Below are positions 7,337 through 63,367 of a stretch of DNA of 64,000 nucleotides, piece after piece (position 1 is the first letter of the stretch; each line of letters begins with the position of its first letter). A model generated the notes under the pieces. The model was not told where the DNA came from and made no database searches. It saw only the letters and a program-made list of their open reading frames with translations. The position numbers and the translations under genes are program-made. Origin of the DNA: a virus. The stretch lies in IMG/VR virus record IMGVR_UViG_3300035542_000215; one strand, 5' to 3'.

Positions 7337-7439
7337 ATAATCCTCCTTGTTTTAAAGTGACTCATACACTCCTTTATTTTATGAATTATTATATGCATGA
7401 AGTTAATTTTATATTCCTTATATTGAATAAAATTAATTT

Positions 7440-7533
7440 TTGACGTTTTTTAGTTAAAATGATAGAATTAAGTACGGAACAAAAACAAATATGTTTTTAG
7501 CGAAAAGGTGCCTGCACTTTTTCGTATTTTTTT
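7440..7533 (+). ncRNA. Candidate ~60-nt small RNA with its own sigmaA promoter and terminator
   Basis: TTGACG(7440)-17-TAGAAT(7463); terminator GCGAAAAGGTG-CCTG-CACTTTTTCGT plus T-run at 7500-7533; no ORF. Confidence 0.5.
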
Positions 7534-7547
7534 TGTAAATCAACATC

Positions 7548-7673
7548 AAAAAAAACCCCTTCCGGGGTTTAATTTTTTTGCTTACCTGAGCCTTTCGGCC
7601 TTCCGATCCAGGTAAACTATTTTAAAGGAGCGACTTTCGTCTTGTTGATAAAGGATAGGAGGTCCTTTATCTA
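7548..7673 (-). ncRNA. Anti-leader/anti-SD small RNA, copy 1 (~125 nt)
   Basis: sigmaA promoter TTGACA(7706-7701)-16-TG.TATGAT(7684-7679). Transcript: 9-bp hairpin with loop CCUCCUA, GAC-GAAA-GUC hairpin, single-stranded GCUCCUUU, UUACCUG/CAGGUAA helix with a GCC-GAAA-GGC sub-helix, then terminator AAACCCC-GGAA-GGGGUUUUUUUU. No ORF. Confidence 0.8.
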
Positions 7674-7721
7674 TATTCATCATAACACAGCTAAAAAATC
7701 TGTCAATTTCAGATGGTTTAA

Positions 7722-7768
7722 GTGAACTACCACCACTTTCACTAAAGTTTAGAAGTGGTGGCTTCTAA
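7722..7768 (-). mobile_element. Miniature IS200/IS605-type single-hairpin element
   Basis: Minus strand TTAGAAGCCACCACTTCTAAAC...GAAAGTGGTGGTAGTTCAC: one hairpin ending in TTCAC, as in IS605 right ends. Confidence 0.55.
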
Positions 7769-7828
7769 CATCTTGTGTTAGAGCTTTTCCTGTTTCAAAG
7801 AGTTGTGCCTTATAATTAAAAAAAGACC

Positions 7829-10685: not shown

Positions 10686-10932
10686 TTGTATCCTCCTATT
10701 TTTTTGTGTTAAAAAACAACACTCCTTTAACTAAGTAGTTTATTATATGCAAAAGTTAAAGCTTATATTCCTAAAATTTCTTTTAAAAAAGACAATATTT
10801 TGGAGTAATTTCATGGCTTTTAGCAGCATCTTTGCTACGTCGTTTTCGGGTTGATAGTATTTTTGAAATGATAAGGTAGGATTTGACATTATCGATTCTA
10901 TAAAAAATCTCATCATAGAAAAATGTATTAAA

Positions 10933-10992
10933 GTGAACCTCTCCACCTAAAGCAGTAAAAAGATTTAGATAGAGCCTTCTTGCAAGTTTTAG
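10933..10992 (-). mobile_element. 60-bp miniature IS605-type element
   Basis: Minus strand TTTAT|CTAAAACTTGCAAGAAGG-hairpin-GGTTCAC; a close relative lies at 43739-43798. Confidence 0.6.
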
Positions 10993-10994
10993 AT

Positions 10995-11118
10995 AAAAAA
11001 AAGAGCCTATGGGGTAGGCCCTTCTGTTTACCTGTGCCTTTCGGCTTTCCGGTCCAGGCAAACTATTTTAAAGGAGCGACTTTCGTCTTTTGATAAAGGA
11101 TAGGAGGTCCTTTATCTA
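10995..11118 (-). ncRNA. Anti-leader/anti-SD small RNA, copy 2
   Basis: Near-identical core and promoter (TTGACA 11151-11146, TATGAT 11129-11124) to copy 1, but a different terminator (GGGCCUA/UAGGCUC plus U8). Substitutions mostly keep the pairing. Confidence 0.8.
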
Positions 11119-11246
11119 TATTCATCATAACACAGCTAAAAAATCTGTCAATTTCAGAAGGTTGTGTTTCAATTTTCATGAAAAAACCTAGGTTATATAA
11201 CCTAGGTTTTTGCTGCGAAGCGAATATATCAATTAAATTTAGATTT

Positions 11247-29443: not shown

Positions 29444-29471
29444 TTGACAGATTTTTTAGCTGTGGTATATT
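29444..29471 (+). promoter_or_regulatory. sigmaA-type promoter sharing the sRNA promoter's -35 box and spacer
   Basis: TTGACAGATTTTTTAGCTGTG-G-TATATT, in tandem upstream of motif promoter 29498. Confidence 0.7.
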
Positions 29472-43686: not shown

Positions 43687-43738
43687 GAACCCTTAACGAT
43701 TTTTTTTGAAATTCGCAGGGGGTTCTTTTATATTGCAA

Positions 43739-43798
43739 GTGAACTTCTCCACCTAAATAAAAACCAAGATTTAGATGGAGTCTTCTTGTAAGTCTTAG
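43739..43798 (-). mobile_element. 60-bp miniature IS605-type element
   Basis: Minus strand TTTAT|CTAAGACTTACAAGAAG-hairpin-AGTTCAC; same length and ends as 10933-10992. Confidence 0.6.
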
Positions 43799-43824
43799 AT
43801 AAAAAAAGGGCCGAAGCCCTCAAT

Positions 43825-46742: not shown

Positions 46743-46923
46743 AATTTATTTCTTTTAAATCCTCATCTTTTCATAATCATACTCTCCTTTTTTTTATTTA
46801 CACATAAGTGCTCCTTAAACATCTAATCTATTATATGCAAATATTACTTTTTATATTCGTTTTTTGAAAATAAAAAAAACACCCCTTTGAAAAAAATCAA
46901 AAAGGTGTTTAAAAATTTGATTA

Positions 46924-59005: not shown

Positions 59006-60019
59006 ATGGGAGAGTCAAAAGTTTTTTACAAAAGATTTAAACAGGCAAGAACTGATCTTGATTTAACTCAAAAAGAATTAGCAGATCGTGCTGGAGTAAC
59101 TGAAAATATTATAAAATATATTGAAACTGGAAGAGGCGGGACTTCTTTAGAAAATTTTAAATCTTTGGCCGTTAGTTTAAATGTTCCAGTAGAAGAAATA
59201 TACAGAGAAGAATATCGGGAAACCTTTGCAATGCCTATTTTAAACAGCAAGGGAGGTTGCTCTAAAACTACCATCTGTCAAAATTTATCCTATGAATTAA
59301 GCTCAAAGGGATTCAAGGTTTTAATGGTTGACTCTGACTTGCAGTGTAATTTATCCTATACTTATAATTTTGATTTTAGCAGTCCTTATAATTTATACAA
59401 TGCTATTGTGAAGTCAACAAACGAAGAGCCAGTTAATATTTTCGAATATATACAAAAAACCGAATATGAAAACTTGGATATAATAGGGAATGTTTTCGAT
59501 ATGGCTAACATAGATGATAAATTTTGGATTAAAAGCTTTAAAGAAGTTATTATGAAAAATATGTTTACTCCTTTAATTGAAGAAGGTTTGTATGATTTCA
59601 TTATTTTTGATTGTAATCCAAATTTAGGCATAACAAATATGAATATATTACTTTTTGCAGATACAATTATCATTCCTGTTGAATTAAGTTCCTTTGGAGT
59701 TATGGGAATGACTGTTTTAATGAAATTTATAGAAAAGTGTAAAAAATCTAATGCTAAACTTTCTGTACTAGGTCTTTTAAGAGCTAATGTAGATAAAAGA
59801 TATAGCATTAATAAAACAACATCAGGCCAACTGTCTTATCTATGTAAAGAATATGATGTTAAACTATTTAAAAATTATATTTCTACAGATAGTAATGTAG
59901 GTAAATCTCAAATGGAACAAGTTCCTTTAGGAAAATATATTAAAAAAAGTAGAGCTAAAGAAGATTTTGTTAGGTTTGCCAATGAGGTAGCAGAAAGGCT
60001 AGGTAAAATAAGTGAGTAA
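59006..60019 (+). CDS. parA: XRE-HTH/ParA fusion ATPase
   Basis: N-terminal FKQARTDLDLTQKELADRAGV...IETG (XRE HTH); NSKGGCSKTT, VDSDLQ, IFDCNP; promoter TTGACT-17-TAATAT near 58895. Confidence 0.88.
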   Translation: MGESKVFYKRFKQARTDLDLTQKELADRAGVTENIIKYIETGRGGTSLENFKSLAVSLNVPVEEIYREEYRETFAMPILNSKGGCSKTTICQNLSYELSSKGFKVLMVDSDLQCNLSYTYNFDFSSPYNLYNAIVKSTNEEPVNIFEYIQKTEYENLDIIGNVFDMANIDDKFWIKSFKEVIMKNMFTPLIEEGLYDFIIFDCNPNLGITNMNILLFADTIIIPVELSSFGVMGMTVLMKFIEKCKKSNAKLSVLGLLRANVDKRYSINKTTSGQLSYLCKEYDVKLFKNYISTDSNVGKSQMEQVPLGKYIKKSRAKEDFVRFANEVAERLGKISE

Positions 60020-61016
60020 AGAGAATAAAAAAACAAATCCTGATGGTGAACAGGAAGAATTATTTAAAGAAGAAGACTTAAATAACATTCCCATTCCAAA
60101 AGGTATGCAAGCTATTAGAGAATTTGCAAAAGACAAGACTTTTGATGAGGATAAAATTGAGTCAATACTTGATTCTTTAATTACAGATACAACAATAAAA
60201 TATATAGATGTAAATTTATTAGAAAAATCTCCAAAGGATTGGAACTTTTTTAAACCGTTAGATCCTAGCAAGTTTTTAATATTAAAAAAATCAATAAAAT
60301 CAGAAGGACTTTTACATCCTATACATGTTTGGAATTATAAAGATCGATTTATAATTTTATCTGGACACAATAGGGTAAAGGCTTTTAAAGAGCTATATGA
60401 AGAAACCAATAATGATGTATATAAAAAAATACCTGCAAAAATAAACAAAGTTGATGAATTAAATAAAGATAAGGCTAGAATGATAGTTGCAATAGGAAAT
60501 ACTCAAAGAGCTGTTACTCTTATTGAAGAATATGAAACTATTAAAAGATTTTTTGATTATAATAAAAATTACAGAGGTATTGATTCTTATCTGGAAAACT
60601 ACGCTGAAATAGAAAAAGCTACAGGAAAAAAATTAAGAACAATACAAAAAGCTATTAATTTAAATGCTTTAATTCCAGAACTATTAAATATGATAGGAAA
60701 TAAAAAACCTTCTATAAGCACAAAAACAGGTGAAATCCTATCAAAATTTAGCGAATCAGATCAAAAATTTTTATATGATGAATTTAGATATGATTTGTCT
60801 TATAATTTAGTAAGAAAAATATCTCCAGATATGAAGAGAGAAGAGATAAGAAATATCTTTAAAAAATATTTAAAAATAAAGAATATAAAAAAGAAAAAAC
60901 TATCATATACTGTTCCAGAAGAAATTGAAGAAAAAGTTAAAGAAAAATTTGAAGATATCATAAAAGAAGAAATATCAAAATGGGAAGAAGAACATGGTAT
61001 TAAATGGAAAATATAA
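60012..61016 (+). CDS. parB: ParB/Srx-family partition protein
   Basis: LKKSIKSEGLLHPIHV...ILSGHNRVKA; overlaps the parA stop. Confidence 0.85.
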   Translation: MSKENKKTNPDGEQEELFKEEDLNNIPIPKGMQAIREFAKDKTFDEDKIESILDSLITDTTIKYIDVNLLEKSPKDWNFFKPLDPSKFLILKKSIKSEGLLHPIHVWNYKDRFIILSGHNRVKAFKELYEETNNDVYKKIPAKINKVDELNKDKARMIVAIGNTQRAVTLIEEYETIKRFFDYNKNYRGIDSYLENYAEIEKATGKKLRTIQKAINLNALIPELLNMIGNKKPSISTKTGEILSKFSESDQKFLYDEFRYDLSYNLVRKISPDMKREEIRNIFKKYLKIKNIKKKKLSYTVPEEIEEKVKEKFEDIIKEEISKWEEEHGIKWKI

Positions 61017-61031
61017 TTTTTTAAAATATGA

Positions 61032-61060
61032 TTGAAAAATAATGACATTACCTATACTAT
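61032..61060 (+). promoter_or_regulatory. Probable sigmaA promoter for the long replication-gene leader
   Basis: TTGAAA-17-TACTAT about 590 bp upstream of ATG 61649. Confidence 0.55.
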
Positions 61061-61086
61061 ATATAATAGATGTAATTTAAATAAAT

Positions 61087-61206
61087 AAAAAAGGACCTTT
61101 TAGGCCCTATACAAGTTAATATTAATTTTGTTGGAAAAAATGATTCTTAATTTTAGCCCCGCCAAGAGTTAATAAATTAAGAATTAGCCGTTCCCTCTTT
61201 TTAATT
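61087..61206 (-). ncRNA. Antisense (countertranscript) RNA 1 in the rep leader
   Basis: TTGACT(61241)-17-TAAAAT(61218); AUUCUUAA/UUAAGAAU helix; terminator GGGCC/GGUCC plus U6. Confidence 0.65.
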
Positions 61207-61372
61207 AAGCTAATTTTAACATATACAAAAATAAGAGTCAATAAAAAAGGTTAAAAAATAAGTAAAAAAACCCTTTAAAGTAAAAAAATCTATAAAAAAA
61301 AGGAGGATAGATCTTTAAGCAGCAAACTGGGGTTTTATATAAATTATTTCTAAAATTAATTTTTTAGACATG

Positions 61373-61511
61373 AAAAAAGGAAGCTTGCAGGCTTCCTATA
61401 CAATTTAATATTTAGTTTAAAAGAAATTCTCATTCTTAAATTTTACAACTTTGACCGGTTCAAAATTTAAGAATCCAGGTTCTTTATCTTTAGTTTTGTC
61501 TATTTGACGTT
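61373..61511 (-). ncRNA. Antisense (countertranscript) RNA 2 in the rep leader, paralog of RNA 1
   Basis: TTGACA(61546)-17-TATTAT(61523); same AUUCUUAA/UUAAGAAU helix and AAUAUUAA.UUGUAUAGG segment; terminator GGAAGC/GCUUCC plus U6. Confidence 0.65.
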
Positions 61512-61648
61512 ATTAAAATAATATCATAGACAAAAAAAAGTGTCAATATTTTATGCAGAAAAAAATAAAAAAATCGGCATTTTTTAACAAATACAAAGAT
61601 AAAGGCGACCATTTTTAATTTTCTTTTAAACAAAAAAAAGAAATACAA

Positions 61649-63367
61649 ATGGAGGTTTTTATGAAAAAGAACATTTTAAGAGAAGAGAACAGAAAAAGAT
61701 ATATCAAAATAAGCAATGACTATTTGTATGATAAAAATTTAAGTTGGAGAAGTAAAGGTCTTAACTCATATATTTTATCTAAGCAAGACAACTGGGAAGT
61801 AGTTGTAAAACATATTATGAACAAGCATGAAAAAGGAGAGGTATATGTAAGAAGCTCAAGAGATGAACTTATTAAGTCAGGCTATTGGTTTTATAGGAGA
61901 TTAAGAAAAAAGACTGGAGAATGTGAAAAATCAGTTACCCTGGTTTATGATCAAAAGAGAGAAAAGGTAGAGGACGAATGCTTTAAGAAAAAAAAGAAAA
62001 TATATAGAACAATTGAAGATAAAAATTACACCTTCTTAACCTGTTATCATTTAGACGATAATAGGTTAAGTTTAGAAGCAAAAGGCATTCATTCATATAT
62101 TTTATCAAGACCTAATGAATGGGAAGTTAATGTTGACCACCTTGTAAAAATGGGAACGGAAGGAGAATCAGTTGTAAAAAAGGCTGTAAATGAGTTAATA
62201 AATTATGGATACATCCAAAGATATCGCATTTTTAGAAATGGTAGAGTGTCTAAATTTAAAAAAATTGCTTCGGAAAAACCTTTTAGTGAAGATGAAAGAA
62301 TTAAATCTATCATATATTCAGAAAATAAAAAGAAAATCAATTATGTTACAGGTCATGTAGTTATAGAAGCTATTAATAAAAAAGCAAACCAGAATAATAA
62401 GCCAACAAAAGAAATTGGTGAAAGTGAAATAAGCAACAGTAATATAAAACAAGACAAAGATAAGGCTCAATGTGAAAAACAACCATCTGTTGAACTTTTT
62501 AAAAATCAAGATGAAGTAAATCAAAAAGAAGAAAATAAAGAACAAATAAATCAAGAACTATCTAATACTATTTATTTAAATAATACAAAAAAGAATAATC
62601 TATCACTCTTAAAAGACGATAAGATAGATATAAATATATTTAAGAGTAAAGATGACATTAAAAAACAAATAGAATACTCTATACTAGTAGAAGAATACGG
62701 ACCGGAAATTTTAGATCCTCTAGTTAATGTTATATATAAAGTTTTAAACTGGCCTAAAGAATACATATCTATATCAAATGTTTTGTATCCATCTCAAGAA
62801 GTTAAGAATGTGTATGAATCATTAAACTCTATAAACGTAATAGATACAATCAATTCTGTTTTAAGTATAAAAACTGTAATTAAAAACTTAAGCTCTTATC
62901 TACAAACAACTTTATATAACAACTTTATAAACAACGATTTAGACATAAAAAACAAGTTTAATGCTACCAATGAAAATATTGATGATGCTTTATTTGATGA
63001 AAATGTAGAAGATGAAACTGAAGAATTCTATATACTATCAACTTACGAAGACTTTCTAAAAGAAATTAAAAACGGAGATTTTGATGATAAAAAAAATGAG
63101 GGCATGGAGGACAAAGAGCTGGAAGAGTTTGAAGACATAGGAGAAGTATCAATTAGAGAACTTTCAATAAGTGATTTTACTAATAATCTACCAAGAGATA
63201 AAAAATCTCTTTTACAGCAGCATATTAAGAAAATCTTGCTAAAAAAAGACAAGATACAAATAGAAGCAAAATCTTCTTTTAGCAAGACTGTATTAGAAAA
63301 GAGATACTTAGATTTAATATTTGAAGTTTTTAAAGATGAAGATTTAGAAATAGTTTTTACATGTTGA
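61649..63367 (+). CDS. Replication-initiator-like protein with two winged-HTH repeats and C-terminal DUF6017-like and DnaA-N-like regions
   Basis: Two copies of the phage replisome-organizer pattern (D..LS...KG..SYILS....WEV.V.H....E..V.....ELI..GY). C-terminal domain calls are from recall. Confidence 0.65.
   Translation: MEVFMKKNILREENRKRYIKISNDYLYDKNLSWRSKGLNSYILSKQDNWEVVVKHIMNKHEKGEVYVRSSRDELIKSGYWFYRRLRKKTGECEKSVTLVYDQKREKVEDECFKKKKKIYRTIEDKNYTFLTCYHLDDNRLSLEAKGIHSYILSRPNEWEVNVDHLVKMGTEGESVVKKAVNELINYGYIQRYRIFRNGRVSKFKKIASEKPFSEDERIKSIIYSENKKKINYVTGHVVIEAINKKANQNNKPTKEIGESEISNSNIKQDKDKAQCEKQPSVELFKNQDEVNQKEENKEQINQELSNTIYLNNTKKNNLSLLKDDKIDINIFKSKDDIKKQIEYSILVEEYGPEILDPLVNVIYKVLNWPKEYISISNVLYPSQEVKNVYESLNSINVIDTINSVLSIKTVIKNLSSYLQTTLYNNFINNDLDIKNKFNATNENIDDALFDENVEDETEEFYILSTYEDFLKEIKNGDFDDKKNEGMEDKELEEFEDIGEVSIRELSISDFTNNLPRDKKSLLQQHIKKILLKKDKIQIEAKSSFSKTVLEKRYLDLIFEVFKDEDLEIVFTC

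Follow-up and report, generated by a model that had tools for sequence, protein, structure and literature searches.

The minus strand of the window, by which we mean the whole 64,000-nucleotide stretch of DNA analysed in this study, very likely contains a real small RNA (sRNA) gene of a new family, which is present in two copies. On the nucleotide sequence, from which its transcription, its action in trans and the sign of its effect are all deduced, there is about an even chance that the predicted RNA is a trans-acting regulator, which would act through anti-Shine-Dalgarno (anti-SD) sequences on mRNAs of the plasmid that encodes it.

Transcription of the first copy (copy A) would start from a promoter module at 7679..7713 on the minus strand. 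The conserved module begins with CTGAAA (7713) and comprises the -35 box TTGACA (7706-7701), a 16-nt spacer ending in TGT and the -10 box TATGAT (7684-7679). With 11 of 12 consensus matches and an extended TG, it ranked top in a local scan for sigmaA-type promoters, and a scan of the whole window found a perfect -35 box elsewhere only at 29444 (plus strand) and 61546 (minus strand). From the predicted 5' end (~7672), folding gives helix 1 (7647..7672), a 9-bp stem with the 7-nt loop CCUCCUA (7662-7656), designated box 1. It is followed on the same strand by helix 2 (7632..7641), a mini-hairpin GAC-GAAA-GUC which mirrors the position of the leader hairpin described below, and by the single-stranded stretch GCUCCUUUAAAAUAG (7618..7631). 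Box 2, which is GCUCCUUUA at 7631-7624, belongs to this stretch and is the complement of the leader 5' box UAAAGGAG(C/U). Helix 3 (7580..7617), composed of UUUACCUGG...CCAGGUAA with an inner GCC-GAAA-GGC, appears to be structural and faster-evolving, and the intrinsic terminator (7545..7570, stem 7570-7553) has a 7-bp GC-rich stem followed by eight U and can work bidirectionally. The predicted RNA is ~125 nt long, and the fold of 7672-7548 has a minimum free energy (MFE) of -40.9 kcal/mol (z = -4.2), which none of 200 shuffled sequences equalled. The box 2 stretch is unpaired in both the MFE and the centroid structures of both copies. The initial annotation had described a discrete, terminated, noncoding minus-strand unit with a sigmaA promoter, a 9-bp hairpin displaying CCUCCUA at 7656-7662 and a second box at 7624-7631, about 25 nt 3' of the loop. 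All of this agrees with the near-consensus promoter, the terminator and the folding, the spacing from loop end to box 2 being 24 nt by our count.

The lone ORF of the minus strand has 33 codons and encodes a hydrophilic product. Since its ATG lies over the -10 box and its frame is broken in copy B by a 1-nt indel, the RNA is taken to be non-coding. A small protein was rejected as the product because this ORF is unconserved between the copies, and a type I toxin-antitoxin system of the par/Fst-like kind because of the hydrophilic product, the overlap with the -10 box and the frameshift between the copies. A type I toxin on the plus strand was likewise rejected, the only candidate being a 15-aa ORF without SD in a unit that is missing at copy B. 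Mimicry of the 16S 3' domain was also considered, since AUCGGAAGG and CUGGAUC are common to copy A and the 16S rRNA end. Apart from the two anti-SD boxes, this mimicry was rejected: copy B has lost both matches, and the local alignment with the 16S tail lacks significance, as 24 of 500 and 138 of 500 shuffled sequences aligned equally well. At the sequence level both copies possess a promoter and a terminator and have no conserved ORF, as would an independent transcription unit of the trans-acting anti-SD sRNA class. The anti-SD sequences are accessible as in that class, with the boxes unpaired and the predicted pairing to start sites favourable.

Two further features were found next to copy A. 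The first is a convergent mini-unit on the plus strand (7440-7535), which reads TTGACG-17-TGaTAGAAT and, after a further ~30 nt, has an 11-bp hairpin and a T-run (7500-7535). It encodes just a 15-codon ORF without SD, adjoins the two-way terminator of copy A and is missing at copy B, and its -10 box reads TATAAT in a diverged allele. The other is a 100-nt two-hairpin segment (7718-7817) between the upstream terminator and the sRNA promoter, which is swapped for 16 other letters in variant contigs (L014, runs X12 and X13). No similarity to this segment was found elsewhere in the window, and a comparison with miniature IscB-derived elements, of which it could have been a copy, gave no similarity.

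The second copy (copy B) is located at 10993..11158 on the minus strand and scores 107.5 bits with the covariance model. It consists of the promoter (11151-11124), helix 1 with its loop at 11107-11101, helix 2, box 2 (11077-11070), a variant helix 3 and an unrelated 11-bp terminator followed by eight U. The conserved region of the two copies begins 8 nt before the -35 box and ends with helix 3; the flanks and terminators are unrelated. From the promoter through box 2, the copies are identical save for one 1-nt indel. A 19-mer surrounding the loop has exactly two occurrences in the window, compared with 0.02 in shuffled sequences. The 95 nt that make up the promoter, helices 1 and 2 and box 2 contain no substitution, versus five in the 36 nt of helix 3 (Fisher p = 0.0013), one of the five being a change from A-U to G-U. 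This distribution points to sequence constraint on the promoter, helices 1 and 2 and box 2, with helix 3 keeping only its shape; part of the identity could come from recent duplication or gene conversion. When the window and 12 related loci were searched with the covariance model built from the sRNA copies, no additional copy was detected. The terminator region of copy B (10931-10995) is 83% identical to an intergenic region between convergent genes (43737-43801) and resembles a reused terminator module.

The sequence was present in no RNA run, and natural variation was analyzed by a population comparison of metagenome DNA contigs only. In a diverged allele from an aquatic metagenome, 7419-7581 differs by 11 substitutions and 2 indels, and 7582-7643 is unchanged (p = 0.04). 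A relative, L014, whose neighbouring protein is 89% identical, retains the promoter and the RNA start directly after the upstream terminator. One natural contig (L011) has the loop variant CAUCCUA, which weakens box 1. Several assemblies break within the sRNA, as is expected of a repeat. A third copy of the promoter module is present on the plus strand at 29444-29471, 27 nt upstream of a cassette promoter. In metagenome contigs the module has 5-10x the coverage of the sequences flanking it and continues into other downstream sequences, which suggests several further copies driving unrelated sequences. The promoter spacer contains a palindrome, ACAG-N9-CTGT, and L014 retains its arms but differs in its centre; from this we infer that the sRNA promoter probably carries an operator.

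The putative targets belong to ~35 units, on both strands between 215 and 55695, which have near-identical promoters of the form T-run-GGAATATAAAA-N11-TGCATATAATA. Read as GAATATA-N14-CATATAAT, these promoters would fit the type of the mother-cell sporulation sigma factors (sigmaE/K), and the N14 spacing is that of the Bacillus subtilis sigmaE consensus. In Clostridioides difficile, ATA is found at -35 of sigmaE promoters, and a -10 box resembling CATATAAT is common to sigmaE and sigmaK (PMC3789822). About 28 of the ~35 units continue into a ~50-nt leader with two boxes, in the order TTAG near the likely start, (U)AAAGGAG(C/U), a hairpin, an A-rich stretch, (U/A)AGGAGG and ATG. The hairpin is 3-6 bp long, mostly 4; its sequence varies between leaders with the pairing kept, and it begins at the last G of the 5' box in all 23 leaders attached to called genes. 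The distance from box to SD is 20-31 nt, compared with 27 nt in the sRNA complement, and the two sRNA boxes are antiparallel to the two leader boxes in the order first noticed. An example is the cassette promoter (7417-7387) and two-box leader of a cell-wall hydrolase gene (7337..7417, minus strand), directly downstream of copy A. In another unit (46745-46859, minus strand), the plasmid tmRNA gene (46742-46398) comes after a cassette promoter, a two-box leader and a mini-ORF of five codons (ATGATTATGAAAAGATGA), so that the tmRNA would form the 3' portion of a transcript bearing the leader.

In 25 of the 28 two-box leaders, GGAG is followed by C or U; two have A instead, and the remaining one is aberrant. 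This preference had been attributed to pairing with a G of the sRNA. The counts agree, but no such pairing is needed, as the C/U is the second base of the conserved leader hairpin (G-Y-G...C-R-C) and its conservation is explicable without the sRNA. The 5' box AAAGGAG is found ~17-24 nt past the -10 element and ~10-15 nt from the predicted start. A comparable element is the STAB-SD of cry3A in Bacillus thuringiensis, a 5' SD-like sequence unused for initiation, at which a bound 30S subunit blocks RNase J1 (PMC4113751). The leader 5' box is likewise near the 5' end, complementary to CUCCUUU of the Tissierellaceae 16S tail and without a start codon following, and it is best read, by analogy, as a STAB-SD-type stabiliser. 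This likeness concerns the target leader and not the sRNA; unlike STAB-SD, the leader box of the plasmid is fused to a conserved hairpin and repeated in ~28 leaders.

Pairing of the sRNA was predicted for the 23 two-box leaders on called genes and for 77 internal (leaderless) start sites, and the leaders scored better throughout, in a contrast which is partly circular since leaders are defined by the box. The accessibility-corrected duplex energy of the loop with the SD is -6.5 kcal/mol in leaders and -3.7 kcal/mol at internal sites (Mann-Whitney p = 2.7e-5), and that of box 2 with the 5' box is -7.6 and -2.3 kcal/mol, respectively (p = 7.6e-12). The predicted sum of the two sites is ~-14 kcal/mol for leaders versus ~-6 kcal/mol for internal start sites. 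Cofolding gave a ddG of -10.7 and -7.6, respectively (p = 1e-6), with both sites used in six of the 23 leaders despite the cost of opening helix 1. The comparison of leader-bearing with leaderless genes, proposed beforehand as a check, thus came out on the side of the leaders in energy, but exclusive targeting did not hold: in the cofolds, single-stranded box 2 also pairs with the SD of 74 of the 77 leaderless start sites. Both sRNA boxes are sub-strings of the ordinary 16S anti-SD (ACCUCCU, CUCCUUU; Tissierellaceae 16S tail GGAUCACCUCCUUUCU). Being generic anti-SD sequences that pair with most ordinary SDs, they imply a modest specificity. The complement of CCUCCUA, UAGGAGG, is not specific to the leaders: among GGAGG-type SDs, UA precedes GGAGG in 9 of 20 leaders versus 10 of 20 internal genes.

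The comparison with the 16S tail separates the two boxes. At the true SD, the mean duplex energy of the sRNA loop equals that of the 16S tail (both -11.6), while at the leader 5' box it is -12.9 for box 2 versus -8.9 for the 16S tail. The advantage arises because the flanking G of box 2 pairs with the C/U after GGAG and its A with the U before AAAGGAG. Box 2 is nearer the leader consensus than 19 of the 23 real leader antisenses, and box 1 is average as an antisense of leader SDs, with 17 of 23 pseudo-antisenses better. Since the sRNA outperforms the 16S tail at the 5' box only, this box is the main predicted contact and the loop a second, weaker one. A preference of the sRNA for leaders would follow from these modelled energies.

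The generic character of the boxes also suits a general SD competitor, that is, a free anti-SD mimic which damps any strong-SD mRNA of plasmid or host. Such an RNA would be expected to have both boxes within the 16S tail and to pair with leaderless start sites as box 2 does (74 of 77), and UA before GGAGG is as common in internal genes. We consider it unlikely, because the flanking G and A of box 2 extend the 16S-type match just as the leader 5' box requires, at -12.9 against -8.9, and because leaders score ~3-8 kcal/mol better. The locus could also be debris, an inverted leader fragment with an acquired mobile promoter and terminator, perhaps transcribed and without regulatory role. Its plus strand does read like a leader, with a terminator, a 44-nt stretch in the place of the promoter, AAAGGAGC, a hairpin and AUAGGAGG; the promoter module recurs in front of other sequences; and the sRNA is not known beyond this plasmid lineage. 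The initial annotation had also pictured the gene as an inverted leader. The stem presenting the anti-SD loop is a derived feature absent from leaders. This stem, together with two copies having independent terminators, the uneven constraint (0 of 95 versus 5 of 36 substitutions) and the lack of changes in the diverged allele, makes debris quite unlikely.

An action in cis is suggested by the neighbourhood of the copies. Copy A ends ~130 nt and copy B ~220 nt upstream of same-strand cassette promoters, the third promoter module (29444-29471) lies 27 nt from another, UAAAGGAGU is found in both downstream leaders, and AUAGGAGG in the leader downstream of copy B. Read-through transcripts from the sigmaA promoter would then carry the anti-SD boxes and the downstream leader in one molecule and silence the adjoining cassette only. 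Strong intrinsic terminators at both copies (7-bp and 11-bp GC-rich stems, then eight U) and an equally good complementarity to more than 20 distant leaders render this very unlikely. Finally, the RNA might be a decoy which titrates a GGA- or SD-like-binding protein or a factor of the 16S 3' end, or one half of an antisense pair with the plus-strand mini-transcript at 7440-7535. The former is in line with GGA motifs in the internal loop of helix 3 in both copies, and the latter with the use of the same terminator region by copy A and the convergent sigmaA-type unit. We judge either to be highly improbable: the plus-strand unit is missing at copy B, where the helix 3 match to the 16S h45 loop (AUCGGAAGG) is also lost, the 16S-tail alignment is not significant, and there is no hydrophobic peptide or conserved ORF.

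A trans-acting anti-SD regulator, the preferred reading, has relatives in function among known RNAs. RsaE/RoxS, RNAIII and the P1 c4 RNA are close functional analogues of the plasmid sRNA. RsaE/RoxS and the hairpins of Staphylococcus aureus RNAIII present C-rich motifs in loops or single strands, which pair with the G-rich SD of several mRNAs, often with two motifs per target; these RNAs are chromosomal and target metabolic or virulence genes. The plasmid sRNA differs from them in having no sequence or covariance-model similarity and in matching a leader common to the plasmid's own cassettes. The c4 antisense RNA of phages P1/P7 and the CI RNA of P4 are small RNAs of mobile elements in which two short boxes pair with two boxes of the target leader and cover the ribosome-binding site, serving as immunity or master switch. 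The c4 RNA has a single operon target (icd-ant) and is processed from the same transcript. By contrast, the plasmid sRNA is a separate sigmaA-driven gene, with SD-like boxes recurring in ~28 leaders. To our knowledge, no antagonist RNA of STAB-SD is known.

The assertion that nothing equivalent had been described is contradicted by the streptococcal csRNAs, which have anti-SD and anti-AUG sequences in unpaired regions and are thought to block translation initiation (PMC3091779). The csRNAs, from Firmicutes, exist in several copies, are ~90-150 nt long and end in a terminator, and one of them is plasmid-borne (pSt0). The plasmid sRNA differs in that it has no CAU anti-AUG beside either box and no Rfam match, and in having one box in a hairpin loop and a second box matching a 5'-proximal SD-like leader box. 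A CiaR-type direct repeat was not seen in the sRNA promoter TTGACA-16-TGnTATGAT. An Rfam 15 scan of the window at gathering thresholds reported tmRNA and HEARO only, with no family at the sRNA locus, so the proposed check for a known family of other function produced none at threshold. A permissive scan (E up to 10) gave no csRNA match, and its best match at the locus was Atu_C8 (RF02502), an sRNA of Rhizobiales, scoring 32.3 bits with copy A and 20.4 bits with copy B against a gathering score of 50. Atu_C8 resembles the sRNA in helix 3, with its GAAA tetraloop, and in the terminator. The match leaves helix 1 and the loop box uncovered, the aligned 5' part with box 2 has little identity, and the phylum is unrelated; it is treated as a chance resemblance in shape.

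Searches in sequence collections were similarly negative. Blastn against phages and plasmids gave nothing relevant, and exact-pattern scans of IMG/VR, GTDB genomes and JGI metagenomes gave chance matches only, unrelated and mostly in high-GC or coding contexts. No diverged relative of the sRNA was found across the blastn, pattern and covariance-model searches. The cassette promoter pattern is absent from IMG/VR, and the promoter/leader system is absent from the plasmids with 50-59% identical Rep_3 (L025-L028).

The window has a GC content of 28%, and sequences bearing the element were seen in oil-field, subsurface, aquatic and wastewater metagenomes. ParA/ParB genes (59006-61016) and a RelB/YafQ pair (1402-1952, inside the left end) are found in the window, together with ThyX, LigA, a class II ribonucleotide reductase, a SleB-type cell-wall hydrolase, an alpha-CTD protein, tmRNA and an IscB/HEARO element. 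All matches of LigA are at most ~50% identical, with no close plasmid or phage relative. A Rep_3 replication initiator is encoded just past the right end of the window (L020 6973-7941), and a restriction-modification system composed of a ResIII helicase and an N6/N4 methyltransferase past the left end (L022 193-4304); these genes identify the element as a plasmid. In the metagenome runs bearing it, the longest contigs are ~110 kb. Rep_3 homologues with 50-59% identity are named from Senegalia, Tissierella and Tepidibacter, so that the host, among the uncultured low-GC Clostridia, is probably a spore-forming member of Tissierellales or Peptostreptococcales. The par, rep and toxin-antitoxin genes carry sigmaA-type promoters, unlike the cassettes. 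Two strong sigmaA-type promoters (61241 and 61546, minus strand) were also noticed within the long intergenic stretch 61032-61649, facing a 572-aa gene and the rep region, and may drive antisense RNAs for replication control.

In the proposed mechanism, the strong sigmaA-type and probably operator-controlled promoter would make the ~125-nt RNA, which would act in trans by pairing with SD-like sequences in mRNAs of the plasmid; the ~28 transcripts with the common leader are the predicted targets that score best. Box 2 would pair with the 5'-proximal UAAAGGAG(C/U) and out-compete the 16S tail by ~4 kcal/mol, and the loop CCUCCUA would additionally cover the true SD. Production of the sRNA would then lead to less translation, faster decay, or both, of the cassette transcripts with sporulation-sigma-type promoters. 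In a more specific form, which we hold to be doubtful though possible, the duplicated sRNA would bind both boxes of the common leader as a dual clamp resembling a four-way junction, blocking translation and exposing the mRNA to RNase J, and would serve as a regulon-wide off-switch. Together with the ~35 sporulation-sigma-type promoters, it would give the plasmid control in two layers over the majority of its cargo.

Anti-SD RNAs and two-box antisense RNAs are already known. The novelty would lie in the match to a leader used throughout the regulon of the plasmid and in the competition predicted at a STAB-SD-like box, and if the RNA is merely a generic anti-SD RNA, it is another member of a well-known class. 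The parts (promoter, 50-nt leader and 95-nt RNA) are short and modular, and could be reused as an expression switch in Bacillus or Clostridium. If true, the dual clamp would provide the first example of an RNA that antagonises a STAB-SD-type stabiliser, as well as a plasmid-borne, regulon-wide post-transcriptional off-switch. If the pairing is real, ribosome-dependent 5' stabilisers can be countered by RNA, a mode of control not described so far, and one small RNA would control a whole plasmid regulon post-transcriptionally through the leader of ~28 transcripts. A vegetative (sigmaA) signal would thereby be linked to the silencing of genes apparently wired to sporulation sigma factors, in a host among the uncultured subsurface Clostridia.
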